Assembly (NCBI GenBank): GCA_966128725.1
Contig: CBHYLN010000002.1
Location: forward strand, 23,711-87,710
Origin: an uncultured bacterium
Lineage (GTDB): Bacteria > Bacteroidota > Ignavibacteria > OLB7
Direction: 5' to 3'
Length of the DNA stretch: 64,000 nt
In this document: piece after piece, positions 9,633 to 39,589 of the stretch
How positions within the stretch are numbered: position 1 is the stretch's first letter
How the letters are laid out: the number at the start of each line of letters is the position of its first letter
Made by a program: the position numbers and the translations under genes
The notes under the pieces: model-generated
What the model was told of the DNA's origin: nothing
Databases searched by the model: none
Seen by the model: the letters and a program-made list of their open reading frames with translations, nothing else

Positions 9633-11228
9633 ATGAGCAGCACGGAGTTCGATTGCATCGTTGTAGGGGCCGGGCATAACGGCCTTACCACCGCCTGTTA
9701 CCTGGCGCGGGCGGGCATGAGCGTTGCCGTGTTCGAGCGCCGCGAGATGGTGGGCGGCGCGGTGGCCACCGAGGAGATGTTCGGAGGCTATCAGATGGAT
9801 GTTGGCGGCTCGGCCCACATCATGATCCATACCACGCCGGTGGTGAGCGATCTGGAGCTGGAGCGCTTTGGGTTGGATTATATCGAGATGGACCCCTTCG
9901 CCTGGCATCCCACACCCGATGGCCAGTGGATTGCCTACTACCGCGATGTGGACCGCACGTGCCAATCGATTGCGCGCATCAGTCCGCGTGATGCCGACGC
10001 CTACCGCGACTTCATCAATTTCTGGAGCCCGATCAACGACGGCGTGTTCGAGACATTTCTGCGGCTGCCAACGCCCGGCAACCTGTTCCGCACGATGCTG
10101 AGCGGGAAGTTCGGGCGCAAACGCGATGTGGCTTCAACGTTGCGGAAGATCTTCACCAGCTACGGGCAGCTTATCAACGAGACGTTTACGCACGAGTCGG
10201 TACGGGCGTCGTTGCTGTGGCTGGCGGCGCAGTCCGGGCCGCCGCCGTCGGAGCCGGCAACCGCGGATTTCGTGGGCTGGCACTCGATGATCCACAAGTG
10301 CGGCGCCAAGCGCCCGCGCGGCGGCAGCGGCATGCTTACGCAGGCGATGGCGCGGCGGCTGGAGCACGACGGCGGTGTGATCCATACCTCGGCGCCGATT
10401 GCTCGCATTACCGTGCAGGGCGGCCGCGCAACCGGCGTGGAACTGGAAACCGGCGAGCGCTACACCGCACGCCGGGCAGTGGTGGCCGCGGGCCACGTGA
10501 TGACCACCATGTTGAAGCTGGTTGGGCCGGAGCACCTGCCGCCGGAGATGGTGCATCGCGTGGAAAATCTGCGTGTGGGCAACGGCTTCGGCATGGTGTT
10601 GCGATGCGCCTCGCGCGAATTGCCGAATTACACCGCGATGCCGCACACGCCGGGCGCCACCAGCACCAACACGCCGCTGGATTGCCATACCGGCCTTCAG
10701 TTGCTGGCGCCCTCGGCACGATATCTGGACAACGCGTACGCCGATTACCTGCGCGGCGAGAACTCGCGCGACCCGGCCGTGCTGGCAATGACGTTTTCGG
10801 CGATCGATCCCACGCTTGCGCCCGAAGGGAAGCACACGGTGTTTCTCTGGAGCCAGTATCACCCGTACGAGCTGGCCAACGGCGAGCGCTGGGATGATAT
10901 CCGCGAGCGCGAGGCCGGGAAGATCATCGCATCGGCCGCCCGGTTCGCGCCCAATCTGCCCGGCGCAATCACTGATACGTACATCCAGACGCCCCTTGAT
11001 ATCGAGCGCAAGCACGGAATGCTGCGCGGCAATGTGATGCACCTGGAAATGTCGTTCGATCAGATGTTCATCTTTCGCCCAACCCCGGAACTGAGCGACT
11101 ATACAACGCCGATTGCCGGCCTGTATCTGACCGGGGCAAGCACACATCCGGGCGGCGGGATTTTTGCCGCCAGCGGTTATAACACGGCTCACGTTGTTCT
11201 GAAGAAAACACGGTGGCGGAGACGATAG
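9633..11228 (+). CDS. NAD(P)/FAD-dependent oxidoreductase, phytoene desaturase (CrtI) family
   Basis: ATG at 9633 gives MSSTEFDCIVVGAGHNGLTTACYLARAG (Rossmann GxGxxG). The 532-aa length and conserved C-terminal blocks fit the CrtI-like family. The upstream 41 codons of the track ORF are unlikely to be coding. Confidence 0.75.
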   Translation: MSSTEFDCIVVGAGHNGLTTACYLARAGMSVAVFERREMVGGAVATEEMFGGYQMDVGGSAHIMIHTTPVVSDLELERFGLDYIEMDPFAWHPTPDGQWIAYYRDVDRTCQSIARISPRDADAYRDFINFWSPINDGVFETFLRLPTPGNLFRTMLSGKFGRKRDVASTLRKIFTSYGQLINETFTHESVRASLLWLAAQSGPPPSEPATADFVGWHSMIHKCGAKRPRGGSGMLTQAMARRLEHDGGVIHTSAPIARITVQGGRATGVELETGERYTARRAVVAAGHVMTTMLKLVGPEHLPPEMVHRVENLRVGNGFGMVLRCASRELPNYTAMPHTPGATSTNTPLDCHTGLQLLAPSARYLDNAYADYLRGENSRDPAVLAMTFSAIDPTLAPEGKHTVFLWSQYHPYELANGERWDDIREREAGKIIASAARFAPNLPGAITDTYIQTPLDIERKHGMLRGNVMHLEMSFDQMFIFRPTPELSDYTTPIAGLYLTGASTHPGGGIFAASGYNTAHVVLKKTRWRRR

Positions 11229-11643
11229 ATCGGCATTCGCATGTGATTGGTGGATGGCCAGCCGTACGTCATGGCAAGCACTACGGGCAACATCGCCGGG
11301 AACGTTTGGGGACGATGACGGCGATGGCACCGGCGAATGTTTGCGGCTGGGCGGCCTGCCGGCATCGTCGGTTGCCTGTGGTACCCAATCATGTACTCCC
11401 GCCCTGTAAAGCCGTGGTGTAGATTCGGTGCGGCACTGCCATGTATGGCAGGGTGCCACGCATTCCCTGTCCAGTTGGTTCCGCGGAGCATCGCGCCGTT
11501 TCCGGAGTGTCGTGTATAGAGGTCCTGCCCTCACACATCGCACATACTTGCGCTGCCACCATATGCGCCGTGGATTGGACCATCCCGAACATGTTGATCC
11601 CCCATCCAGTCACCGTTCCGTTTTCCAGATCAAGGAGAAAACC

Positions 11644-26479: not shown

Positions 26480-28708
26480 TTACTCCGTCTCCTCACCGCC
26501 CAGTCGCAGCCTGATGCCCACGAACACCTCCCGTCCCTCAACAGGCCCCCACACCTGGCTTCCGTCCACATGGCCCTGGGCCACCTGGAATGCCAGCGGC
26601 ATTGTATCGCTCTGGCGGATGTCCAGCAAATTTGTGGCGCCCGCATACAATGCCACAATACCCAGCCATTGCTCGGCGCGGAAGTTCACAAGCAGATATG
26701 GGTCGGACTTCGTGACCGCCGCGGGGTTGGCACGAAGTGTCTGCGAGCCAACCCAACTTGCCCACGTCTCCGCCGTGAAGCCCGCAGCACGGTTGGCATA
26801 CATGGCCGTGGCGTCAACGTTCACGGTTGGGGCAAGCGGTACCGGCTGATAATCACCGCCGGATTGTTCGGTTGCGTAGTCGATTACCTGGCAGGCCAGC
26901 GAGCCGCTCCAGTGTTCGCCGAACGTGGGGCGCAACTGAATCTCGAACCCTCGCAGCCGTGTGCCAAGCGGATTGTTCTCGTACATAAGCGTGCCGGCGG
27001 CCAGGGAGTCGGGGTTGGGCATTGCCTTACCGATGATGCGTGTTGTATACGCATTTACGTTGAGATCGGCTCCGCCAGCGTCGCCTATCAGGAATCGATA
27101 GCTGGCGTCGGCATTCAACGTGATGGCACGTTCGTATCCGAACGACGGGTTCGAGCGCCATCGATAGATACCGTGAAGCACGCGATGATCCTCATCGAAC
27201 AATGCCTCGGCCTTGAAGCCCTGCCCTGCCATAAGGCGCATCGTGAACTGCCCCTCGGGCCGGAAGCGGATTGCGGCCCTGGGCGAGATCAGCAGTCCCG
27301 CCGAGGAGTGATGATCGGCGCGCAGCGCCGTCAGCAGGCTCCATGGGCCACCTAAGGCAAGTTCGCTCTGCACGTAGGCTGCCCACAACGTGTTCGAGTA
27401 TCCAATCCCCAGCGCGCTGTGTTCGGTCACTTGATCGTGGTGTGCCTGGATGCCTGCCACAAACGACGCTGCATCAAACGTGGTGGTGTAGGAAAGCTCG
27501 GCGTGTGCCGTACGTTGGTCGGCGTCCAGAAGGGTGGAACCGTAGTTGGCGGTGACGCCAACCAGTGATGCCGCGGCACGCAGTGCGATGTCGGACGATT
27601 CGTCCAGCGTCCGACCGATGGACACCAGCAGGTCGTAACGCGAAATATCGGAGCGTTCGTTATAGGTCTCGCCGCTCGTTCCTTCGCCGTGTGTTCCGGT
27701 CCGTTTGTCGTTGCCGACAAGGCCGGTGGCAATCAGCTCGGTGACATCGTCGAGCAACACGTTGGCCTTCAGCAGGCCGGAGAACCGTCGCCAGCCAGCC
27801 GAGGTCGGGGCGTCGGATGCGGAGTGATCGGAATACGATCCGAACGCCGCTATGCCGGCCGGACCGGCTACCCCGGTATACGAGGCGTTGATGTCGGCGG
27901 CGTCAGGCGCCCATGGCTCGCGGCCGGCCATTGTGGCGCTGAAGCCGAACTCCGGTATCTCGGTGGGCGGGCGTGTCTCCAGGTTTACAACGCCGGAAAC
28001 AGCCCGGTTGCCGTGCAGGGCGCTCGAGGCTCCCTCCACGATGCGGATTGTTTGAAGCGCCGTGGCCGGTATCATCGGCAGGCCGTACATGGTCGACAGG
28101 CCGGAGAACAGCGGCGCGCCATCGAGCGTCACGCTTACGTACGTTGGCTCCAGCCCGCGCAGCCGGGTGAAGCCGGCATTGTCCACCGCGCAAATCACAC
28201 GTGCGGCGGTACACGAACTGTAGCGCGCCAACGCATCGGCTGCCGTTGGAGCAAATGGCGCGTGCTGTTGCACCTCGTCGCGAATGGATTCCACGCGGCA
28301 GCAGGCGTCCTCTACCGAACGCGTGCGGCGCACCGCGCGCACTTCCACCTGTGGCGCCGTGGGCGCGGCTTCCTGCAATTCGATCAGCAGGTAATCGGAT
28401 GTGGGCTCCACCACCGTGCGTTGTGGCTCAAATCCCACGTGGCTGACCGCGATGCCAACGGCCGTGTTGAATGGCAGCGTGATCGAGAACGTGCCCGCCT
28501 GGTCGGTGATGGCTCCGTGTGGCAGGGCACTTGAATCGACAGCCGAGAATGCGCGGACCGTTGCGCCCGCCAGCGGATTCTGGTCGGCATCAAGAACCAG
28601 ACCGTTTATCGTTCTGGTTTGCGCGCGTATTGCGCCCGTGGCAATGCACAGGAACATTGCGGCAACGGCCGTTCGCACACCCGGGGTGGTAATTCTGAAG
28701 GATGACAT
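26480..28708 (-). CDS. TonB-dependent outer-membrane receptor with an N-terminal carboxypeptidase-regulatory-like domain (SusC/OprC-like)
   Basis: 742 aa. Signal peptide, INGLVLDADQNPLAGATVRA (CarbopepD_reg-like), plug domain, and a C-terminal beta-barrel ending in an aromatic residue. Confidence 0.85.
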   Translation of the reverse strand: MSSFRITTPGVRTAVAAMFLCIATGAIRAQTRTINGLVLDADQNPLAGATVRAFSAVDSSALPHGAITDQAGTFSITLPFNTAVGIAVSHVGFEPQRTVVEPTSDYLLIELQEAAPTAPQVEVRAVRRTRSVEDACCRVESIRDEVQQHAPFAPTAADALARYSSCTAARVICAVDNAGFTRLRGLEPTYVSVTLDGAPLFSGLSTMYGLPMIPATALQTIRIVEGASSALHGNRAVSGVVNLETRPPTEIPEFGFSATMAGREPWAPDAADINASYTGVAGPAGIAAFGSYSDHSASDAPTSAGWRRFSGLLKANVLLDDVTELIATGLVGNDKRTGTHGEGTSGETYNERSDISRYDLLVSIGRTLDESSDIALRAAASLVGVTANYGSTLLDADQRTAHAELSYTTTFDAASFVAGIQAHHDQVTEHSALGIGYSNTLWAAYVQSELALGGPWSLLTALRADHHSSAGLLISPRAAIRFRPEGQFTMRLMAGQGFKAEALFDEDHRVLHGIYRWRSNPSFGYERAITLNADASYRFLIGDAGGADLNVNAYTTRIIGKAMPNPDSLAAGTLMYENNPLGTRLRGFEIQLRPTFGEHWSGSLACQVIDYATEQSGGDYQPVPLAPTVNVDATAMYANRAAGFTAETWASWVGSQTLRANPAAVTKSDPYLLVNFRAEQWLGIVALYAGATNLLDIRQSDTMPLAFQVAQGHVDGSQVWGPVEGREVFVGIRLRLGGEETE

Positions 28709-28789: not shown

Positions 28790-29248
28790 TCAACAGGGAG
28801 GGTGGTCCGGGATGGTTTGTGCGCCCGTTTGAAGCCGGGATGCCAGAGGCGCGGGATAGCTGTCGTGTGTGCCCTGCATGGTGCCGGTGGATGCGCCGCA
28901 CGGAGCGGCCAGTGCCACAAAGCAGCAGGCGCATACCCCGGTGCATCCGTCGGCGGCGGCATTGCCGTTGTGATGCGCCGGCCGCGAATCTCCGGGCCGT
29001 TGCGCCTTGCCCGCGACCGGCCCGCGATCCGCCTGATGCTGCCCGCATTCCGGCGTTTCGACGCCGCAATCGCAGTGATCATCACAGTCATCGGCCGGGC
29101 CGGAATGGCAGGGTGTTTCGGCAATGCAGCAGCCGGCGGCGCCCGCAGTTGTTGCCAGCGCCGACCCTCCGGTGGCCAATGCGACCAGCACCGCCAGAAG
29201 CAGAGCCAGGATGCGGCCGAGGCGCGAATATGTTGCCCGGGTATTCAT
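28790..29248 (-). CDS. Secreted Cys/His-rich small protein (hypothetical metal-binding), immediately upstream of the TonB receptor
   Basis: ATG at 29248 gives MNTRATYSRLGRILALLLAVLVALATGGSALA... then GCCIAETPCHSGPADDCDDHCDCGVETPECGQHQ...GCTGVCACCFVALAAPCG. GC3 ~75% supports coding. No recognisable family. Confidence 0.5.
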   Translation of the reverse strand: MNTRATYSRLGRILALLLAVLVALATGGSALATTAGAAGCCIAETPCHSGPADDCDDHCDCGVETPECGQHQADRGPVAGKAQRPGDSRPAHHNGNAAADGCTGVCACCFVALAAPCGASTGTMQGTHDSYPAPLASRLQTGAQTIPDHPPC

Positions 29249-29424
29249 AAAGCGCAAAAAGATACAACGGATCGGCAAATCCCGGCGTGTGCATTCTCCG
29301 GTGTGGCGCGTGCCCGCCTGTCGCGATGGCTGCGGTGCCGCCGTGCGCGCCGCGCGGTATCTCCGGGGCAATCCCGAACACATCCTGTTGTTTTCTATGG
29401 GCGCGCAATCGTACTTTAGGGCCC

Positions 29425-29886
29425 GTGACTATCAGGGCACTCATAACGCTTGGCACAATTTTCGGCCTGCTTGCGTTCGCGGTTGTACCGCTTCCGCTTG
29501 CCTGCTGCGAAGTTGCCGTTGCTGCACAATCCGCTGTGGTTGCGGCTTCGCCGGGGTGTTGTGGTGCGCCCAAGGCCGACTGCCATTGCGCGAAGTCGGT
29601 TCAACGGGCAGCCACGCCAATCCTTGGCAACGGCATATGTTGCATAGGCTCCGGCCCGCTTTCCTGCGACTGTCCCAGTGTTGCCTCTGCTTCGGTCGAC
29701 GCGCTTCCGCCACTCAACCTTGCCATCCAGCTTCCGGTTGTTGCCTTCAATGCCAACCGCATGCCATTGCCGGCTTTAACGATGGTTCACGGTTGGGGCC
29801 GCGTCTGCCGTGTTGGATCCTCGCCGCCACATCTTGCGGCCACCATGCACCGTACCTATCTCCGCATCGAGTCCTTGTTGATTTAG
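29425..29886 (+). CDS. Cys-rich small membrane-anchored protein (hypothetical), divergent from 28790-29248
   Basis: GTG at 29425 gives VTIRALITLGTIFGLLAFAVVPLPLACCEV...SPGCCGAPKADCHCAKS...GICCIGSGPLSCDCPS. It shares GCC...DCHC/HCDC/SCDC-type motifs with the divergent neighbour. Codon bias is weaker, so it is less certain. Confidence 0.3.
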   Translation: MTIRALITLGTIFGLLAFAVVPLPLACCEVAVAAQSAVVAASPGCCGAPKADCHCAKSVQRAATPILGNGICCIGSGPLSCDCPSVASASVDALPPLNLAIQLPVVAFNANRMPLPALTMVHGWGRVCRVGSSPPHLAATMHRTYLRIESLLI

Positions 29887-30160: not shown

Positions 30161-31537
30161 ATGTTGGCATACAAACGCTCATCATGGCGCTTCCGATTGT
30201 GCGCAGCGCTGGCATTGTGTCTCGCGCTGCTGGCCGTGCCGGCGTTGCGGGCGCAACCGCGGGCCGATACGCTTTGGCTTGGCCGGGACGATCTGCTGAA
30301 GATGCTGCGCGAGCGCGACCCGTTGTTTGCGCGCGGGCATGCTCTGCGCACACAGGCCGACGCCGAGCGAGCCCGATACGGAAGCTGGTTTCCGGGATAT
30401 CCGCAACTGGATTTCGAGCGCGTAACCGACGCCCCGTTTCATAACAACGGCGACGGGGGCTGGAGCCTTGGCCTGAATCAGGAGTTCGACATCTCGGGAC
30501 GCTTTGGCGCCCGTATGGCGGCCGCGCACGCAGCCGGGGGCGAACTGAGTGCCGACGCCGATCTTGCCGACGCGGATGCAGCCACGCGGGGGCAGGCACT
30601 GTTCGCGCGTTTGATTGTGGCCAACGAACGCATGCGTCTTACCGGGCTGTTGGCCGCAGCTGCCATGCGCCTGGATTCGCTTGCGGCGCGGTTGCTGGCT
30701 GCCGGTGAAATCTCCGAACTGGATCGCAATCTGGTGCGCATCCAGCGCGTTCAGGCCACGATCGAGGCCGAGCAGGCCACGGGGCGCATGGCGGCCGAAC
30801 AGGCCGATCTGCGACTGGCGTTCGGTATCGGCCGCGACACGGTGGTTGCGCCGAAACCGGGCTACGAGGATGTCGCGACCGCGTTGCTTGATTCGGCGGC
30901 CGCGTTCGAGGCAGGTGTTGCGCGCGGTGATGCTGATGTGCTTGCGCGCCGGCCCGAGTGGCGTGCGCTGCAGGCTCGTGCCCAGCGTTTGCGTGCCGAG
31001 CGCGATATCGCGGCTCGAAGCTGGGTGCCGAATGTCCGGCTTGGCCTGGCGCTGCACTCCGAAAGTATGGTGCTGCGTGGTGAGGATATCACCGGCAGCG
31101 AAGTTGTGCGCTCGGGATTTACGCGGCTGGCCTCAACCGACATGTTGCTCGGTGTGAACGTTGGCCTGGCGGTACCGCTGCCGATTAACGGGCTGTATCC
31201 TTCGGCTGGTCAGGAAGTGGCCGTTGCCGAGGGCGAACTGGCGCTGGTGGATGCCGACCGTGCCGTGTTGGTTGGGGGCATCCGGCGCGAGCTTGCACAT
31301 GCAACCGAACGCTTGCGCGCGGCCGCGCGTGGCCTGCGAGCGTATCAACAGGAGATAGTGCCGATTGTGGCGCGTAATCTGGAGCTGGCCGAGCGCGGGT
31401 ACGCGGCGGGTGAACTGAGCGCCTCGCAAGTGGTGCAACTGCAGGATCAATTGATGCGCACCGGCACGATGGCCATCGAACTGCGAATGGAACTGGAGCA
31501 GGCGGTCGCCGATGTGAATCGTGTAATGGGCAGATAG
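30161..31537 (+). CDS. czcC: TolC-family outer-membrane efflux protein (CzcC-like) of a heavy-metal RND system
   Basis: 458 aa. Signal peptide, two-repeat OEP architecture, followed by MFP and RND genes. Confidence 0.8.
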   Translation: MLAYKRSSWRFRLCAALALCLALLAVPALRAQPRADTLWLGRDDLLKMLRERDPLFARGHALRTQADAERARYGSWFPGYPQLDFERVTDAPFHNNGDGGWSLGLNQEFDISGRFGARMAAAHAAGGELSADADLADADAATRGQALFARLIVANERMRLTGLLAAAAMRLDSLAARLLAAGEISELDRNLVRIQRVQATIEAEQATGRMAAEQADLRLAFGIGRDTVVAPKPGYEDVATALLDSAAAFEAGVARGDADVLARRPEWRALQARAQRLRAERDIAARSWVPNVRLGLALHSESMVLRGEDITGSEVVRSGFTRLASTDMLLGVNVGLAVPLPINGLYPSAGQEVAVAEGELALVDADRAVLVGGIRRELAHATERLRAAARGLRAYQQEIVPIVARNLELAERGYAAGELSASQVVQLQDQLMRTGTMAIELRMELEQAVADVNRVMGR

Positions 31538-31555
31538 CGCAGAACTATACCGACT

Positions 31556-32254
31556 ATGGAACGAGAGATGATAGATCAACGGATCGATCCCAACCGGTCG
31601 CGGGGGCAGGCGCCTGTTATGGTGCCGTGGCTGTGCGCGCTGGTGTTGGTGGGGCTTGTGGCGAGCGTTCGTGATGTGTGGGCGCATGGCGGCGAGGATC
31701 ACGATCATCCCGCCGTTGCGGCTCCGTCGGCGGTTTCGGCGGGCACGCTCACCACGTTTGGCGTTTCGCCACGATACGAGCTGTTGATGAAGTACGAGGC
31801 GACCGAGGCCGATCACCCGGTAACGGTGCGACTGTTCCTCTGCGACTTCGCAACAAACCGTCCGGTGGAAGGCGCGTTATTCGTGTTTGCATCCAAGCCG
31901 GCGGGCGCGCGTTCGATCGAGGCCCCGCGCATGACGTCGCCGGGCGTATATCAGGCCACGATGACGTTTCCCAACGACACTGTCTACAGCCTGACCGCCA
32001 CGTTCTCGGTGGGCGATCAAAGCGAGACGATCGCGTTGCCGGCTGTGTACGCCGGCGAGGCGGCCGAGCACATTCTTGGCCAGCATACGGAATCCTCAGC
32101 CAACGGAGCCGGGCTGGGCGGCCTGTGGTGGCCAATCGCAATCGGCGCGGGTGCGCTTGTAGCCGTGGCGGTCTGGCTGGCGCGCCGCGCGCGAAAGCCG
32201 AGCGGCGGCAACAACGGACCAACGTTCAACAATCAACAGGGGAGCGGAGTATGA
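31556..32254 (+). CDS. Hypothetical membrane protein with an AHGGEDHDH His-rich motif, inserted between czcC and czcB
   Basis: N-terminal TM (WLCALVLVGLVASV) followed by AHGGEDHDHP, and a C-terminal TM (WWPIAIGAGALVAVAVWLARRARK). Its stop overlaps the czcB start (ATGA). Confidence 0.5.
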   Translation: MEREMIDQRIDPNRSRGQAPVMVPWLCALVLVGLVASVRDVWAHGGEDHDHPAVAAPSAVSAGTLTTFGVSPRYELLMKYEATEADHPVTVRLFLCDFATNRPVEGALFVFASKPAGARSIEAPRMTSPGVYQATMTFPNDTVYSLTATFSVGDQSETIALPAVYAGEAAEHILGQHTESSANGAGLGGLWWPIAIGAGALVAVAVWLARRARKPSGGNNGPTFNNQQGSGV

Positions 32255-33411
32255 ACATGCGTACATCACGATCGCGTCGTCCGCGTTGGGGGCGTACGCT
32301 GCTTGCCGGTGCGGTTGCCCTGTGCGTTGTGCTGGGCCGTTTGCTGGCGCATGGCGGCGAGGACCATGGAGACGCCGAACATGGTGCCGCCACGGCCAAC
32401 GGGCCGATGGCTACCACGATAAGCGTGGTCAAGGAGCAGCAGTTCGCGATTGGATTGCTCACCGAGCCGGCTGCCCGGCACCCGATGGGCGTTGGCATTA
32501 CCGCAACAGGGCGTGTTGTGCCGCGCACCGATGCGGTAGCCGATGTGATTCCCCCGATTGCCGGGCGTGTGGTGGGCGGTCGCCTGCCGCGCCTGGGGGA
32601 GCGTGTGCGGCGCGGAGAGGTTCTGTTCCGTGTACAGCAGGTGCTTGCACCAACCGAGCGCACGGCGCTGCGCCTGGAGCAGGTGAAAGCCAAGGCGGAA
32701 GTTGATGCGGCCCAGCGCGAGGTGGATCGATTGGTGCGTCTGGAGGGCGTTGTCGCGGCCAAGCAGTTGCTGGATGCCCGTGCCCGGCTGGCCTCGGCAC
32801 GCGAAGCAGCAACCGCCATCGCCGCCCAACTTCAGGGCGCGGGCACGGCGGTTGCCGTTGTTGCGCCAATCAGCGGAACCATCACCGCCGCCGACATCGC
32901 CGACGGTGAAATCCTTGATGCTTCGCGCCGGGCGTACAGCATCGCCAATCTCGACCACGTGTGGGTTGAAGCCGATGTGTTTGAAGCCGACCTTCCGAAA
33001 GTGCAGGGCGTGCGGGCCGTTGAGGTAACAACCCCCGCATATCCGGGCCGGACGTTCGCTGGCACGCTGTATCGCCTGGGCAGCGTTGTGGACCCCTCCA
33101 GCCGGGCGATCACCGTGCTGCTGGATGTCCGAAATCCCGACGAGCTGTTGAAGCTGAACATGAGCACGAGCGTTGTGCTGGCCGCTGGTGCGGCGCAGGA
33201 GGAGATCGCCATCCCGCAGAGCGCTCTGGTTCGGAGCGGCGCGCGTACCGTGGTGTTTGTGCATACGGCGCCCGAGGAGTTCCAGGTGCGCGACGTGCGA
33301 ACCACCGGCGCGGCTGCGGGCGGATACGTTGCGGCAAGCGGCATCGGCCTGGGCGAACGTGTTGTTGTCAGCGGCGCCCATCAGTTGAAGGCCGTCGCGG
33401 GCCTGCAATAG
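32251..33411 (+). CDS. czcB: Efflux RND periplasmic adaptor (membrane fusion protein, CzcB/CusB-like)
   Basis: ATG at 32251 (RBS GGAG). HlyD-like barrel-sandwich/beta-barrel blocks. The N-terminus (TM plus AHGGEDHGDAEHG) echoes the preceding ORF. Confidence 0.85.
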   Translation: MNMRTSRSRRPRWGRTLLAGAVALCVVLGRLLAHGGEDHGDAEHGAATANGPMATTISVVKEQQFAIGLLTEPAARHPMGVGITATGRVVPRTDAVADVIPPIAGRVVGGRLPRLGERVRRGEVLFRVQQVLAPTERTALRLEQVKAKAEVDAAQREVDRLVRLEGVVAAKQLLDARARLASAREAATAIAAQLQGAGTAVAVVAPISGTITAADIADGEILDASRRAYSIANLDHVWVEADVFEADLPKVQGVRAVEVTTPAYPGRTFAGTLYRLGSVVDPSSRAITVLLDVRNPDELLKLNMSTSVVLAAGAAQEEIAIPQSALVRSGARTVVFVHTAPEEFQVRDVRTTGAAAGGYVAASGIGLGERVVVSGAHQLKAVAGLQ

Positions 33412-33463: not shown

Positions 33464-36400
33464 GTGCTTAACTCGCTGATACTGTTCTCGCTTCGGAACC
33501 GTCCGCTTGTGCTGGCCGCGGCCGCGCTGTTGCTTGCCTACGGGGTGGTGGTGCTTACACGGCTTCCTGTGGATGTGCTGCCCGATCTGAACCGGCCAAC
33601 GGTTACCGTGATGACCGAAGCCCACGGCATGGCGCCCGAGGATGTGGAACTGTTGGTGTCGCGGCCCATCGAGTCCTCGATGAACGGAGCGTCGGGCGTG
33701 GAGCGGGTGCGGTCGGTATCGTCGATGGGGCTGTCCATCGTGTTTGTGGAGTTCGATTGGGGAAGTGATCTGTACCGCGATCGCCAGCTTGTGGCCGAGC
33801 GTCTGAGCGCTGTCCGCTCCAGCCTTCCCGCCGAGATCGTTCCGCAGCTTGGCCCGATTACTTCCGTGATGGGGCAGATCATGCTGGTGGGCCTCTCCGC
33901 CGACACCACCAGCCCGATGGCATTGCGGACGTTGGCCGATTTCACGGTGCGGCGCCGGCTGCTTACGATTCCGGGCGTGGCCCAGGTGACAACGATCGGC
34001 GGCGAGGTGAAGCAATTCCAAGTGGTTGCCAAGCCGTCGCAGTTGAAGGCGTTTGGTGTTTCGCTGGACGAACTGGAACAGGCCACGGCCCGTGCAAGCG
34101 CTGCCACCACCGGCGGTTACGTGGAGATCGGCGCGCAGGAGTATCCGATACGGAACCTGGCCCGCGCGGCTAACGCGGCCGACGTGGCGGCAACAGCGAT
34201 CCGCGTTTCCAACGGCGTTCCGGTAACCATCGGTCAGGTTGCCGATGTGCGCGAGGCTGCCGCACCCAAGCGCGGCGATGCCTCGGTAAACGCGCGCCCG
34301 GCTGTCATCCTAGCGGTGGAGAAGCAGCCCGACGCAAGCACGCTGGAGTTGTCGAAGCTGGTGGATTCGGCCTTGGCGGAGCTGAAGCCCAGTCTGCCGC
34401 GCGACGCACGAATCGACGCGCACGTGTTCCGGCAGGCGGATTTTATCGACAACGCAATCGGCAACGTGGAGGAAGCCCTTCGCGATGGTGCGATACTGGT
34501 TACGATTGTTCTGTTGCTGTTCCTGCTGAATGTGCGTACAACGGCGATCACGCTGACGGCAATACCACTTTCGATGGTGATCACCGCGCTGGTGTTCTGG
34601 CTGTTCGGCATCTCGATCAACACGATGACCCTTGGTGGGCTTGCTGTTGCCATCGGCGAGGTTGTGGACGATGCGATCGTTGATGTGGAGAATGTGTTCC
34701 GGCGACTTCGCGAGAACCGCGAAGCCGAACGCCCGCTGCCGGCGTTGACGGTTGTGTACCTGGCGTCGAGCGAGGTGCGGAATTCCATTGTGATCGCCAC
34801 GGTTCTGGTGGTGCTTGTGTTTGTACCGTTGTTCGCGTTGCAGGGGATGGAGGGGCGGATCTTCGCTCCGCTGGGCATTTCCTATGTGACGTCGATCGTG
34901 GCGTCGCTGCTGGTTTCGCTGACGGTTACGCCGGCGCTGGCGTCGTACCTGCTGCCGCGCTCGCGCGCGCTTGGCCGTGCCGAACGCGACAGTCCGCTTG
35001 TGCGCTGGTTGAAACAAATCGATCGCCAATTGCTGGAGCGCGTTCTTGCACGCCCCGTGCTGGTGATGGCTTCGGCGGCGCTCCTGTTCGCCGGAGCGGT
35101 TGCGATAATCCCGATGCTTGGCACCGAATTCCTCCCGCCCTTCAACGAGGGGTCGCTTACAATCAGCGTGGTGCAGCCGGCGGGCACATCGCTAAGCGAA
35201 TCCAACCGTATCGGCACGATGGTGGAGCGTCTGCTTGCCTCGGTGCCCGAGGTTGTTTCCGTTGCGCGCCGAACCGGCCGCGCCGAGTTGGATGAACATG
35301 CCGAGGGTGTGAACTCCAGCGACGTGGAGGTGCGCCTGCGGCCGGGCGATCGCGAGCAGGCGGCCGTGCTGGCCGATGTGCGCGCGCGTCTGGCGCTGGT
35401 GCCCGGCGTGGTGATCAACATCGGCCAACCGATCTCGCACCGGCTGGATCATCTCCTCTCCGGCGTGCGCGCGCAGATCGCCGTGAAGATTTTTGGCGAC
35501 GATCTTGGTGTGCTGCGGGCAAAGGCGGAGGACGTTCGCCGCGCGATGGCGCTGGTGCCCGGCGTGGTGGATCTTTCGGTGGAGCCGCAGGTGCTTCTGC
35601 CGCAAATCCCCATCGCCATCGATCGTGTTGCAGCCGCGCGATATGGAATGGCGCCCGGGGAGGTTGCCGAGCAACTGGAAACGGCACTCAGCGGCAGGCA
35701 GGTTGGTGCTGTTCTGGATGGGCAGCGAAGTTTTGCGCTGGTTGTTCGGTCGGATTCGGCGGCACGGCTTTCGCTGGACCAGATAAGCGCGTTGACCGTG
35801 GCAACCCCAACCGGGGCTCATGTGCCGGTACGTGAGCTGGCCCTGGTGGAATGGGGCAGCGGCCCAAACCAGATCCTGCACGAAAACGGGCAGCGCCGCA
35901 TCGTGGTGCAAGCCAATGTGGCCGGCCAGTCGTTGGGTGAAGTCATCTCGGGCATCAAGAGCTCCGTTGCCTCGCGTGTTGCGTTGCCCGAGGGGTACTT
36001 CATTACCTACGGTGGGCAGTTCGAGTCACAACAATCGGCGACACGCCTGTTGATGCTGCTGGCGGTGATGGCGGTGGTTGGGATGTTCGCCGTGTTGTAC
36101 GCGCATTTCCGGAGTGCGCGAATCGTGCTGCAGATTCTGCTGAACATACCTCTGGCGTTGGTTGGGGCGGTGGTGGCGATCACGCTTACCGATGCAACGA
36201 TATCGGTGGCAACCATTGTGGGCTTCATTACGCTTACGGGCATCGCGTCGCGCAATGGGATCATGATGATCTCGCACTATCTGCACCTGATGCGCGAGGA
36301 AGGCGAGGGGTTCACTCGCGAGATGATCGTCCGCGGTTCGCTGGAACGGCTGGTACCGGTGCTGATGACCGCACTGACCGCCGGGCTTGCCCTGATTCCG

Positions 36401-36646
36401 CTGGGATTGGCGCACGGTGCTCCGGGCAAGGAGATTCTGCATCCGGTTGCGATTGTGATCCTCGGTGGGCTGGTTTCCTCAACCCTGCTGGATATTTTCC
36501 TTACACCGGCCGTCTTCTGGCGCTTCGGGCGCACGGCCGCGCAGCAGTACTTCGAGCGCCGTGCCGCCAGCACGGTTACCGCTGTTGCCCCAACTGCAAA
36601 CGACGAACATCCCAATACCAATACATCTATCAGGAGTGAATCATGA
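33464..36646 (+). CDS. czcA: Heavy-metal efflux RND transporter, CzcA/CusA family
   Basis: 1060 aa, 12-TM RND architecture, N-terminus MLNSLILFSLRNRPLVLAAAALLLAYG typical of the HME-RND family. Confidence 0.95.
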   Translation: MLNSLILFSLRNRPLVLAAAALLLAYGVVVLTRLPVDVLPDLNRPTVTVMTEAHGMAPEDVELLVSRPIESSMNGASGVERVRSVSSMGLSIVFVEFDWGSDLYRDRQLVAERLSAVRSSLPAEIVPQLGPITSVMGQIMLVGLSADTTSPMALRTLADFTVRRRLLTIPGVAQVTTIGGEVKQFQVVAKPSQLKAFGVSLDELEQATARASAATTGGYVEIGAQEYPIRNLARAANAADVAATAIRVSNGVPVTIGQVADVREAAAPKRGDASVNARPAVILAVEKQPDASTLELSKLVDSALAELKPSLPRDARIDAHVFRQADFIDNAIGNVEEALRDGAILVTIVLLLFLLNVRTTAITLTAIPLSMVITALVFWLFGISINTMTLGGLAVAIGEVVDDAIVDVENVFRRLRENREAERPLPALTVVYLASSEVRNSIVIATVLVVLVFVPLFALQGMEGRIFAPLGISYVTSIVASLLVSLTVTPALASYLLPRSRALGRAERDSPLVRWLKQIDRQLLERVLARPVLVMASAALLFAGAVAIIPMLGTEFLPPFNEGSLTISVVQPAGTSLSESNRIGTMVERLLASVPEVVSVARRTGRAELDEHAEGVNSSDVEVRLRPGDREQAAVLADVRARLALVPGVVINIGQPISHRLDHLLSGVRAQIAVKIFGDDLGVLRAKAEDVRRAMALVPGVVDLSVEPQVLLPQIPIAIDRVAAARYGMAPGEVAEQLETALSGRQVGAVLDGQRSFALVVRSDSAARLSLDQISALTVATPTGAHVPVRELALVEWGSGPNQILHENGQRRIVVQANVAGQSLGEVISGIKSSVASRVALPEGYFITYGGQFESQQSATRLLMLLAVMAVVGMFAVLYAHFRSARIVLQILLNIPLALVGAVVAITLTDATISVATIVGFITLTGIASRNGIMMISHYLHLMREEGEGFTREMIVRGSLERLVPVLMTALTAGLALIPLGLAHGAPGKEILHPVAIVILGGLVSSTLLDIFLTPAVFWRFGRTAAQQYFERRAASTVTAVAPTANDEHPNTNTSIRSES

Positions 36647-36849
36647 ATCACGAAACAATTGTGATTGAGGGCATGAGCTGTGGTGGCTGTGTCAACAGTG
36701 TACGCAAGGCGCTGGAGCGCCTTGAGGTTAACGTGGTGGAGGTTACCATCGGAACGGCGACGGTTGAATACGATCCCGCCGCAACTTCACGCGAAACCCT
36801 GGTGGAAGCCATTGTAGATGCGGGCTTCGATGTGCCCGCGGTTGAATGA
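36643..36849 (+). CDS. copZ: Copper chaperone, CopZ-like (single HMA domain)
   Basis: 68 aa with IEGMSCGGCVNSV (MxCxxC). Overlaps the czcA stop (ATGA coupling). Confidence 0.85.
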   Translation: MNHETIVIEGMSCGGCVNSVRKALERLEVNVVEVTIGTATVEYDPAATSRETLVEAIVDAGFDVPAVE

Positions 36850-38021
36850 TGTGTACCAAAATGAACGAACAACAGAAGCGGGAGACAGGAATGATGATTG
36901 CATCCAGAAAGTGGTTCGGGTATGACGGGCGTACCTGCTGGCGCTGGTGCTGCACGGCCATGTGCCTGGCGATGACGGTCTTTACGGTAGTTGGTTGCGG
37001 CGGTGGTGATGCTCCGAAGTCGGGATCGGCCGACTCGGCGACCGCCACGCCCGCCGCCGATGGTGACCACCATCATGCCAACGCAGCGGAGGAAGCCGCC
37101 GTGCATACACATTCCACGGATATGACGGTGACCTCCGAGCCAGCCACAATCGCGCCGGGCGTGCCGACCACGATGACAATCAATATCGTGGAGAAGAATG
37201 GCGGTGCTCCCGTACAGGCGTTTGATACGGTGCACGAGAAGTTGCTGCATATGATTGTGGTGTCGGCGGACATGACATGGTTCAACCATGTGCATCCGGT
37301 GTATGCCGGCAATGGCCGATTCAGCATCCAGATTGCGCTGCCGAAGGCTGGCGAGTACTACATGTACGCGGATTACACACCGGCTGGCAAGGAGCACGAA
37401 ATCGCACAGCACAACTTTACGGTTACCGGAAGCGCTGGCTCCGCACCCAAGGAGGCCGTGGTGGATTCGCTTGGCGGACAGCCGTGGATAGTGAAGAGTG
37501 TTGGCTCGGCCCCGGAAGGGCACCCCGAACAGGCCACCGCCGCAACGTATCAGGTTGCGTTGATGCCCATGCCCGGCCACCTCGTGGCAGGCCAGGATGC
37601 CATGCTGCATTTTCAGGTGCGTGATGCGGCGGGCAAGCCGCTTGGTGATCTTGAACCGTACCTTGGCGCAATGGGCCATGCGGTGATTCTCTCGACCGAC
37701 GGCAAGGTGTATCTGCATACACATCCGATGGAGGACGGGATGGATCACGGTACCATGAAACATGGCGGTGGCGAACACGGGGCAATGAGCAAGGCTCCTC
37801 CCGTTGGCGGCGCCAATGCGGGGACAATGGGCCGGGGCTTCGCGGCCGGGGCCGAGCAGGACAATGCCCCAGCGGCAAAGAAACCTGCCGCCAAAGGCGC
37901 GGATGTTGTCTTCCACACGAATTTCCCACTGCCAGGGCGTTATCGTGTGTGGGGCCAGTTCCAACACCGCGGCAAGATTATTACCGTGACGTATCTGTTG
38001 GAAGTTGCGCCGGCGGCATAA
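36846..38021 (+). CDS. His/Met-rich periplasmic lipoprotein (putative Cu/Ag-binding), hypothetical
   Basis: Lipobox VVGCGG. Motifs HTHPMEDGMDHGTMKHGGGEHGAMS, WFNHVHPVY and GDHHHANAAEEAAVHTH. Translationally coupled to copZ (ATGA). The start is 36846 or Met16 (36891). Confidence 0.65.
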   Translation: MMCTKMNEQQKRETGMMIASRKWFGYDGRTCWRWCCTAMCLAMTVFTVVGCGGGDAPKSGSADSATATPAADGDHHHANAAEEAAVHTHSTDMTVTSEPATIAPGVPTTMTINIVEKNGGAPVQAFDTVHEKLLHMIVVSADMTWFNHVHPVYAGNGRFSIQIALPKAGEYYMYADYTPAGKEHEIAQHNFTVTGSAGSAPKEAVVDSLGGQPWIVKSVGSAPEGHPEQATAATYQVALMPMPGHLVAGQDAMLHFQVRDAAGKPLGDLEPYLGAMGHAVILSTDGKVYLHTHPMEDGMDHGTMKHGGGEHGAMSKAPPVGGANAGTMGRGFAAGAEQDNAPAAKKPAAKGADVVFHTNFPLPGRYRVWGQFQHRGKIITVTYLLEVAPAA

Positions 38022-38698: not shown

Positions 38699-39346
38699 TC
38701 ACCGTACCTGCGCCCTGATATACCAGTAAGCTTCGATCACGCTCGCGAACTGCGCGCCGGGGTATTCCACGCGACCATAGTTGCCGACGTTCTCCGGCGA
38801 GGGCCATGGGTCGCGTACCACAACCGAGGCAATTACCGGCCCGGACCGTGTTTGCAGGAAGCTTGCGGCGGTAATCACCACTGCGTGACCACTGCCCGGC
38901 CCGGAGCGATATCCTGCAAGAACAGGATGCCCCTGGCTGAGCTCACGCAACAATACTGATGGCGTTGGCGCACCCCAGTTCATCGAGGATGCCACAACGT
39001 ACGGGTTGCCGGCATTGTCCACATTCCAGTTGTTCAGATTGGCGGTGATCGCCGGGAAGCTCCCGGCCCAGTTCGGCAGGCGGCCATATGGATCCGAGCC
39101 ATAGGTGCGCGCCACGATCTGCTCCTGAGATATGTCGACGCCATAGTAGTTCAGCACCATCTGGATGGATGCCGCCCAGCACCAGTTGGAGTTGCGCTGC
39201 GAGGCGGCGTAGAAGTTCATTTTCGACGACTGGATACCAACGTACTGTGCCTGGGGCTGGTACGAGTAGTACTGTGCCTGCGCCGCCGGCGAAGCAATGC
39301 CGGCCAGTGCAAGGAGAATCCAGATCAGATATCGCTTCGGGCTCAT
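38699..39346 (-). CDS. Secreted papain-like cysteine peptidase, C39-like domain
   Basis: ATG at 39346 gives MSPKRYLIWILLALAGIASPAAQAQ (signal peptide). NWCWAASIQMVLNYYG (catalytic Cys) and GHAVVI (His). Confidence 0.6.
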   Translation of the reverse strand: MSPKRYLIWILLALAGIASPAAQAQYYSYQPQAQYVGIQSSKMNFYAASQRNSNWCWAASIQMVLNYYGVDISQEQIVARTYGSDPYGRLPNWAGSFPAITANLNNWNVDNAGNPYVVASSMNWGAPTPSVLLRELSQGHPVLAGYRSGPGSGHAVVITAASFLQTRSGPVIASVVVRDPWPSPENVGNYGRVEYPGAQFASVIEAYWYIRAQVR

Positions 39347-39589
39347 CACGTTCGTTCGGGAATTATGTGCGGGCGCATCCAAGGCCGATGCATGCGGTCG
39401 TGGCGTCGGGCTGCCACGGGGCCTGCCGGAATGACGCAACGCCATTGTCTGCGTGACAATTACGACGGTGCCGTTACCCTACCCCCCGGGCATCGCAGGC
39501 AACTTTGGTAATTGGCGCCATCAAACGCAAGGCATCGTATGGTATGACGTGATATCGATTGCCCGGTTCCCGAACGACGGTGGTTGGCC

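Follow-up and report, generated by a model that had tools for sequence, protein, structure and literature searches.

A membrane protein encoded between the outer-membrane factor and adaptor genes of a NieCBA-type efflux operon shares an AHGGEDH motif with the adaptor and may act as its metal-capture partner

The 64,000-nt stretch of DNA analysed here as a whole (the window) comes from an uncultured bacterium of the Ignavibacteria (lineage OLB7; assembly GCA_966128725.1, contig CBHYLN010000002.1, positions 23,711 to 87,710 of the forward strand) and carries an operon for a tripartite metal efflux pump of the resistance-nodulation-division (RND) type, in which an additional gene at 31556-32254, here called X, is wedged between the genes for the outer-membrane factor and the periplasmic adaptor. 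An earlier note on this DNA had pointed to this 232-aa open reading frame (ORF), to its ATGA overlap with the adaptor gene and to a short motif shared by the two proteins behind a hydrophobic N-terminal segment, which it took for a metal-capture or sensing module. The position and the overlap were confirmed on the raw sequence and the ORF list, so that the observation itself is confirmed, and its interpretation turned out to be partly supported. The gene starts 18 nt past the end of the TolC-like outer-membrane factor gene, and its stop codon TGA shares the four nucleotides ATGA with the start codon of the adaptor gene at 32251. The core of the operon is organized as follows.

30161-31537, plus strand: outer-membrane factor, TolC-like, 458 aa (Pfam OEP, E 7e-21)
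31556-32254, plus strand: protein X, 232 aa, between the outer-membrane factor and adaptor genes
31556-31684, plus strand: predicted Sec signal peptide of X, aa 1-43 (...VRDVWA), with predicted cleavage at A43/H44 from family residue statistics
31685-31702, plus strand: motif of X, H44-G-G-E-D-H49, the predicted mature N-terminus and putative metal site
31745-32050, plus strand: predicted periplasmic immunoglobulin (Ig)-like/YtkA-like beta-sandwich of X, aa 64-165 (AlphaFold2, AF2, model)
32123-32191, plus strand: predicted C-terminal transmembrane helix of X, aa 190-212 (AF2 helix 191-212), then the cytoplasmic tail RRARK
32251-33411, plus strand: periplasmic adaptor (membrane fusion protein), 386 aa (HlyD_D23, E 2e-32; TIGR01730, E 7e-38), with a predicted signal peptide at aa 1-33
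32350-32367, plus strand: motif of the adaptor, H34-G-G-E-D-H39, then GDAEHG, with the first conserved adaptor segment about 25 residues further on
33464-36646, plus strand: heavy-metal efflux (HME)-RND pump, NieA type, 1060 aa (TIGR00914, E 4e-237)
34649-34693, plus strand: transmembrane helix IV motif of the pump, AIGEVVDDAIVDVEN, reading AIG-X3-DDA-X3-VEN
35297-35314, plus strand: periplasmic motif HAEGVN of the pump
35438-35452, plus strand: periplasmic motif HRLDH of the pump

The sequence of X runs M...PVMVPWLCALVLVGLVASVRDVWA-HGGEDHDHPAVAA... and contains a second hydrophobic stretch at residues 190-209 (32123-32182) that is followed by RRARK. Its true start may be the ATG at 31568, giving a protein of 228 aa, because a database protein with 100% identity (P0001) starts there. 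The adaptor runs MNMRTSRSRRPRWGRTLLAGAVALCVVLGRLLA-HGGEDHGDAEHGAA..., that is, a hydrophobic stretch followed by A33-H34GGEDH39. Lipoprotein status was rejected for both proteins on reading their sequences, because Leu precedes each Cys and a lipobox is hence absent.

The ORF at 31556-32254 is a real gene and belongs to a large family that has no name. Six homologues of X were returned by a word-indexed search. When a profile was run in full with HMMER over 1.84 billion representatives, at least 783 clusters (50% identity) passed E <= 1e-3; 366 of these also passed E <= 1e-10, and 20 passed E <= 1e-30. Members occur in Bacteroidota, Acidobacteriota, Pseudomonadota (alpha- and betaproteobacteria), Myxococcota, Sericytochromatia and the Ignavibacteria/Kapaibacteria group and are often plasmid-borne, inside copper-resistance islands. 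Database entries nearly always name them 'hypothetical protein' or else carry evident mis-annotations such as 'Nickel transport protein' or, for several members, 'LPXTG cell wall anchor domain-containing protein'. They have in common a signal-peptide-like segment, the motif (A)HGGEDHG, a flexible linker, a YtkA/Ig-like beta-sandwich, a C-terminal membrane helix and an Arg/Lys tail. Since both the family and the gene position are kept in related operons across phyla, X is a genuine conserved extra component, which supports the earlier note.

Conservation within the family is concentrated in the motif. In an alignment of 50 diverse members with a mean column identity of 26%, H44, G45 and H49 were conserved at 100% and A43, G46, E47 and D48 at 90% or more, and the invariant or near-invariant positions of the body were E75, N101, P103, G130 and Y132. 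The motif holds the only conserved His of the family, a conserved Cys or Met is found nowhere in the protein, and there is no conserved Trp; E75 is the only conserved ligand-type residue of the body, with D97 conserved in 62%. Variants of the motif, such as AHEGEDH, AHEGHDH, AHDGEDH, AHGDEDH and, lacking the first His, (A/S)GGGDDH(D/T)H, occur among the family members. A hydrophobic 19-mer is present at the C-terminus of 197 out of 201 standalone members and is followed by at least two Lys or Arg residues in 172 of these. Many betaproteobacterial members possess a second His-rich patch (H-x-H...W-x-E-W) just ahead of the transmembrane helix.

With the 50-sequence alignment as input, AF2 predicted the beta-sandwich (residues 64-165) at a predicted local distance difference test score (pLDDT) of 97-98, a helix at 168-182 and the transmembrane helix at 191-212, and it placed the motif in a flexible tail with a pLDDT of 52-58. 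The Pfam family YtkA (PF13115) matched 21 of the 50 family members at E <= 0.01 (best E 1.8e-8). The match to X of the window was weak (14.3 bits, E 0.064) and below the gathering threshold of 25.9 bits, and the Pfam and NCBIfam scan of this protein gave nothing beyond it. In the PDB, a sequence search with the family profile found no related solved structure, only weak hits to filamin-type Ig repeats, and the top fold neighbour of the model was CrdA of Helicobacter pylori (9ll2/9ll4) with an E of ~8e-4 and a TM-score, normalised to the target, of 0.64-0.65.

Within the window, the heptapeptide AHGGEDH is the sole similarity between X and the adaptor (BLASTP E 0.013). When this pair of proteins was shuffled 20,000 times with composition preserved, some shared 7-mer turned up in 27 cases. 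The earlier note had been prepared to drop its idea if the similarity were confined to the motif and the ORF unconserved in related operons; the two proteins indeed show similarity in the motif only, but related operons from several phyla have kept the ORF, so that this refutation fails. The sharing of the motif is beyond chance, because the motif is conserved in the X family and occurs at the same place in the adaptors of related operons. The adaptors of close relatives likewise open with a hydrophobic segment that is followed by AHGDDAHE or AHGGEDHG. A recent duplication of a DNA module comprising the transmembrane segment and the motif was rejected as the source of the similarity, because the two DNA segments coincide at the motif codons only and differ there at wobble positions.

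The linkage of the genes was followed in other genomes. In four relatives (L001, L003, L005 and L007) the order outer-membrane factor, X, adaptor is kept together with the 4-nt overlap. A broader survey used a degenerate DNA pattern for AHGGEDHG in one genome per species and covered at least 120 loci, with a bias to exact-motif carriers; profiles made from the proteins of the window served to classify all ORFs of these loci. The motif-bearing loci span at least seven phyla. Among the matches listed, the in-frame AHGGEDHG behind a hydrophobic segment was found, as far as the protein types of the operon are concerned, only in X, in adaptors and in fusions of X with an adaptor, the remaining 41 in-frame matches fitting none of the operon's proteins, and X-adaptor-RND was the commonest order with 17 loci. 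Both partners carried the motif in 17 of 23 adjacent, unfused X-adaptor pairs when scored by regular expression, and in at least 19 of the 23 after correction by hand for HGDEDH variants. The neighbouring pumps were similarly uniform, A[IV]G-DDA-[VI]EN being found in 30 of the 31 RND pumps with a readable transmembrane helix IV and HRLDH in nearly all of them (again among the matches listed); the sole exception was a pump on the opposite strand. Several Acidobacteriota loci have the outer-membrane factor gene between the X and adaptor genes. On a plasmid of Hymenobacter sublimis (L128), a gene for a 'nuclear transport factor 2 family protein' (10750-11259) lies between the adaptor and RND genes of a homologous operon and is another lineage-specific insertion into the core of the three pump genes.

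X and the adaptor also occur as a single polypeptide. About 45 of the best 150 family representatives are X-adaptor fusions of ~500-650 aa that contain the motif twice, arranged as signal peptide, AHGGEDH, sandwich, transmembrane helix, Arg-rich loop, short hydrophobic segment, AHGGEDH and adaptor; one such fusion from Haliscomenobacter is annotated merely as an adaptor subunit, and WP_013768957.1 of this genus is an example of a natural fusion. In the surveyed loci, too, many adaptors of ~510-610 aa proved to be such fusions with two copies of the motif.

The residues in front of the motif point to processing by signal peptidase. In 103 first motifs from 50%-identity representatives, position -1 was occupied by A (95), G (5), S (2) or P (1), position -3 by A (49), V (27), L (8), S (6), I (5) or T (4), together ~96%, and position -2 was bulky, mostly F, L or W. 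Counted from the last n-region Lys or Arg upstream, the motif His lay at a median of 19 residues, the interval being made up of a hydrophobic and a polar segment. The X family thus shows the charged n-region, the hydrophobic h-region and the -1/-3 residues of Sec/signal peptidase I substrates. The 36 internal second motifs of the fusions had similar -1/-3 preferences, with A at -1 in 33 of 36, and followed short signal-peptide-like cores, and internal cleavage of the fusions may therefore occur. Both N-termini had been described as a membrane anchor followed by the motif; the hydrophobic segment and the motif are indeed present, and the segment looks like a cleavable signal peptide and is probably not an anchor in either X or the adaptor. 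As the -1/-3 residues and the length fit signal peptidase I, the mature forms of both proteins probably begin with the His of H-G-G-E-D-H. The n-regions of the adaptor signal peptides contain twin arginines in the window (32251-32349) and in its close relatives L001 and L007 (SRRPRW, MRRGVV, PRRIPI), which hints at possible Tat export; in the Hymenobacter adaptors this was not seen.

Judged by its sequence signatures, the pump of the window is a NieCBA-type HME-RND system. The operon had been labelled czcCBA; the pump motifs AIG-DDA-VEN, HRLDH and HAEGVN match the NieA type instead. The transmembrane helix IV signature of Czc pumps (HME1/HME2) is DFG-X3-DGA-X3-VEN (PMC3637150), and a CzcCBA identity was rejected because the window pump reads AIG-X3-DDA-X3-VEN. 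An identity with CusCFBA (HME4), for which A(V/I)G-X3-DAA-X3-(I/V)EN is expected, was rejected for having DDA rather than DAA and for lacking the Met triad of CusA, since residues S, S and H align with M573, M623 and M672 (phmmer). The pump is about equally far from ZneA and CusA (E ~1e-136 and ~1e-132), and the closest solved structures of the adaptor are ZneB (E 2.7e-24) and CusB (E 1e-16). The NieA signatures given in the supplement of the paper describing this pump are HAEGVH, HRLDH and AIG-X3-DDA-X3-VEN (PMC7060636); the second and third are present in the window, and the first reads HAEGVN, with one His replaced. That an insertion at this place is foreign to canonical czcCBA operons holds in so far as the extra gene is genuine, but the pump is not Czc, and the position has precedents in cusF and cep.

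The gene cep, for an exported protein that is conserved, lies between nieC and nieB, interrupting the usual CBA order, in the operon nieIC-cep-nieBA (block A3AGDRAFT_00906-00910) of Cupriavidus neocaledonicus STM 6070, for whose NieA a new HME class ('class 6') was proposed and nickel was guessed as substrate from H-x3/4-H motifs, without experiments (PMC7060636). Our literature search for nieA and nieB found this single Cupriavidus paper only. X resembles cep in its identical position (outer-membrane factor, cep, adaptor, RND) and in the signatures of the neighbouring RND pump, and the two may be homologous. Neither sequence nor motif of cep is reported in that paper, which proposes nickel, whereas the context of X leans to copper. 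The betaproteobacterial X subfamily is large and includes Oxalobacteraceae and Burkholderiaceae proteins from metagenome-assembled genomes; a Cupriavidus entry was absent from the best 120 of its 362 matches.

The remaining genes of the operon flank this core on both sides.

29287-29886, plus strand: Cys-rich predicted membrane protein, 199 aa (CC, CC, CHC, CC, CDC), no Pfam match
36643-36849, plus strand: CopZ-like HMA metallochaperone, 68 aa, with MSCGGC (Pfam HMA, E 9e-13; NCBIfam CopZ, E 3.5e-14)
36846-38021, plus strand: His-rich lipoprotein-like protein, 391 aa, with tandem YtkA-like domains and a VVGC lipobox

The first of these is probably the first gene of the operon and may be a counterpart of nieI or a separate metal-binding component; it is 33% identical over 202 aa (E 1e-24) to an ORF upstream of the outer-membrane factor gene in L001 (5542-6330). 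A minus-strand Cys/His-rich ORF (28790-29383) was rejected as the gene of this upstream gap, since the plus-strand ORF is better conserved. Downstream, the CopZ-like gene has ATGA overlaps on both sides, with the stop of the RND gene and with the start codon of its own downstream neighbour; it is unusual for an RND pump to be coupled in translation to a cytoplasmic chaperone of the Cu(I) type. The protein encoded at 36846-38021 contains the His motifs HHH, HTH, HVHP, HTHP and, at 37761, HGGGEH. Its homologues occur in many loci with X, adaptor and RND genes, sometimes between the latter two, and combine HMBD and YtkA-like domains (Bacteroidota) or YtkA-like and Cupredoxin_1 domains (Acidobacteriota). 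The protein probably serves this class of pumps as a second accessory protein for metal. Divergently oriented beside the operon lies a gene for a TonB-dependent receptor with an N-terminal CarboxypepD_reg domain (26480-28708, minus strand). The same receptor is found beside the operon in L001 (2982-5228), a relative with ~50% identity, an import receptor being conserved here next to a metal export system. A gene for a secreted papain-fold protein, Peptidase_C39-like/AvrRpt2-like (38699-39445, minus strand), follows closely downstream of the operon and appears to be unrelated.

These genes bear on the metal. In the window, the CopZ-like HMA gene and the gene of the His-rich YtkA-like protein are translationally coupled to the pump, and the neighbours of the Hymenobacter plasmid locus comprise a P-type ATPase, a cupredoxin, DUF305 and HMBD proteins, a four-helix-bundle copper-binding protein and an HMA protein. 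Because of these operon genes, the domains of their homologues and the plasmid neighbours, copper is probably the substrate, with nickel or zinc as possible others. The top fold neighbour of X, CrdA, is likewise a Cu/Ag protein of the periplasm. The His and carboxylate ligands throughout the tags (as we call the two copies of the motif) and the His cluster of the pump point to a borderline divalent ion such as Cu(II), Ni(II) or Zn(II) rather than to the Cu(I)/Ag(I) that Cus binds through Met.

The closest functional precedent is CusF, encoded in E. coli CusCFBA between the outer-membrane factor and adaptor genes, the position of X; SilF/SilB are of the same kind. A small protein of the periplasm, CusF binds metal and cooperates with a metal site on the flexible N-terminal tail of the adaptor, the HME-RND substrate being taken from the periplasm (PMC6235853), and transfer of metal from CusF to the CusB N-terminus is established (PMC6235853). 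There is no sequence or fold relation between the two proteins: CusF is a soluble OB-fold with a His/Met/Met/Trp site for Cu(I), whereas X combines an Ig/YtkA-like sandwich with a membrane anchor at the C-terminus and a His/Glu/Asp tag at the N-terminus. The systems also differ in that donor and acceptor bear the same motif in the case of X and that its pump is devoid of the CusA Met triad. CrdA of the H. pylori CrdAB-CzcBA system, which binds Cu/Ag, is similarly a periplasmic beta-sandwich accessory encoded with an RND metal pump, but it shares 9-12% identity with X and no common metal-site motif was seen, and it comprises ~106-108 residues compared with 232 including a transmembrane helix. 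In proteins of the CopC/CrdA type, Met and His ligands lie inside the fold; the X body has no conserved His or Met, and E75 is its one conserved ligand-type residue. The YtkA-like/FixH-type E-set family PF13115 covers the sandwich body, and the 36846-38021 protein is of the same domain type, but PF13115 does not include the signal peptide, HGGEDH tag, C-terminal anchor and RND linkage that define the X family. An N-terminal His generated by signal peptidase serves as a metal ligand in CopC, in the 'histidine brace' of PmoB and lytic polysaccharide monooxygenases, and in ZinT with HGHHSH. The predicted N-terminus of X, His-Gly... and a further His five positions later, resembles those of CopC, PmoB and ZinT, a pattern of the kind used for chelation by amine and imidazole; their His1 lies inside a folded site, whereas the tag of X lies on a disordered tail and has an internal copy in the fusions.

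From these observations we favour, with moderate confidence, the reading that X is a dedicated accessory of the NieCBA-type pump, a membrane-tethered metal-capture subunit that would be CusF-like without being homologous to CusF and would work together with the matching tag of the adaptor. X would be exported by its Sec signal peptide and cut after A43, so that the mature protein would start with His-Gly-Gly-Glu-Asp-His. The tag would be carried on a flexible tail of ~15-20 residues joined to the rigid Ig-like (YtkA-like) beta-sandwich, which the short helix and the single C-terminal transmembrane helix would tether at the outer face of the inner membrane in type-I topology. The adaptor, translationally coupled via ATGA, would be processed alike and present the same tag on its flexible N-terminal tail. 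Each tag could bind a borderline metal with the N-terminal amine and imidazole of His1, with His6 and with the Glu/Asp carboxylates as ligands; X, held at the membrane, would capture periplasmic metal and hand it by ligand exchange to the identical site of the adaptor, from which it would travel further to the pump and its His-rich site in the periplasm (HAEGVN, HRLDH). The functional parallel would be the relay from CusF via CusB to CusA, but with unrelated parts and with His/carboxylate instead of Met chemistry. The metal-capture module suggested in the earlier note fits the very strong selection on the His/Asp/Glu motif in both proteins.

Several points weigh against this reading. We infer metal binding and hand-off by X from sequence for every member of the family, and the cleavage of X and the adaptor is read from residue statistics. 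The tail that bears the motif is predicted to be disordered and thus lacks a site geometry, and the fold match between X and CrdA is borderline and concerns a generic Ig-like fold. In the fusions, the second motif is internal unless cleaved, and a free N-terminus is therefore maybe not required. Because the survey loci were picked by means of the motif, the figures for co-occurrence are too high; some X proteins or adaptors have lost the second His or the entire motif, for example in L044, L116 and L125, and the pairing of the motif in X and adaptor is common, not obligatory. The identity of the metal is ambiguous, with the context speaking for copper and the His/carboxylate ligands and the guess made for NieA speaking for Ni(II) or another divalent ion. 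In our literature search, no paper containing the motif HGGEDH was found.

X could instead be mainly a scaffold or anchor that positions the soluble, cleaved adaptor and the tripartite complex at the inner membrane, like small RND-associated membrane proteins, with the motif binding metal independently or controlling the conformation of the adaptor and no hand-off taking place. The natural fusions, which join the adaptor to the transmembrane hairpin of X, the retention of the C-terminal helix in almost all standalone members and the conserved non-ligand positions N101, P103, G130 and Y132 of the sandwich as a possible interface are in line with such a role. We nevertheless consider it unlikely, because the strongest conservation of the family lies in the His/Glu/Asp motif and not in the transmembrane helix or the body, a pure anchor would have no need for the motif, and in several Acidobacteriota loci the outer-membrane factor gene separates X from the adaptor.

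A metal-dependent switch or sensor appears doubtful. Metal on the tags would then activate or gate the pump allosterically, as proposed for the CusB N-terminus, or would report the periplasmic metal load, and the placing of the tags on flexible tails near the periplasmic entrance region of the pump is compatible with this. Such a switch role is debated for the CusB N-terminus. The sensing role that the earlier note had offered next to metal capture finds no support in the gene and its surroundings: a signalling domain is absent from X, whose cytoplasmic tail is short and basic, and no conserved adjacent two-component or extracytoplasmic function (ECF) regulator was seen in the loci examined. 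A gating switch is, however, hard to tell from the relay model by sequence.

A reading in which the motif serves processing or sorting, or is an artefact of chance or duplication, and the ORF is without a role in the pump, is very improbable and largely refuted: the motif does lie directly at the predicted signal peptidase site and the similarity of X and adaptor in the window is limited to seven residues, but two His with Glu and Asp form a classic metal ligand composition, the motif keeps, in the matches listed, to X, adaptors and their fusions among the operon's protein types, a shared 7-mer is rare in the shuffles even for one pair, and the ORF is conserved, confidently folded and fused to the adaptor in many genomes, so that conservation and linkage effectively exclude this explanation.

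The proposed capture and hand-off of metal by X can be extended to the whole group of operons, although only tentatively. In a phylum-spanning NieA-type class, divalent metal (such as Cu(II) or Ni(II)) might be relayed between identical tags made by signal peptidase on the membrane-tethered Ig-domain chaperone and on the adaptor and then to the His cluster of the pump, with the fusions being cleaved internally and releasing an adaptor with a free His1. If true, such internal cleavage would mean that a bacterial envelope complex matures in the manner of a polyprotein, which would be unusual.

What is understood of periplasmic metallochaperones supplying RND metal pumps comes essentially from a single example, CusF and CusB, with their Met-based handling of Cu(I)/Ag(I). 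The X family would be a widespread, non-homologous solution to the same problem, tied to a little-studied class of RND pumps. Its near-invariant seven-residue tag is a precise target for mutagenesis and spectroscopy, and the identical tags of donor and acceptor together with the natural fusions make the question of hand-off versus switch directly testable. The family merits a name and a profile of its own, which would end its labelling as 'hypothetical', as 'LPXTG anchor' or as part of the adaptor.

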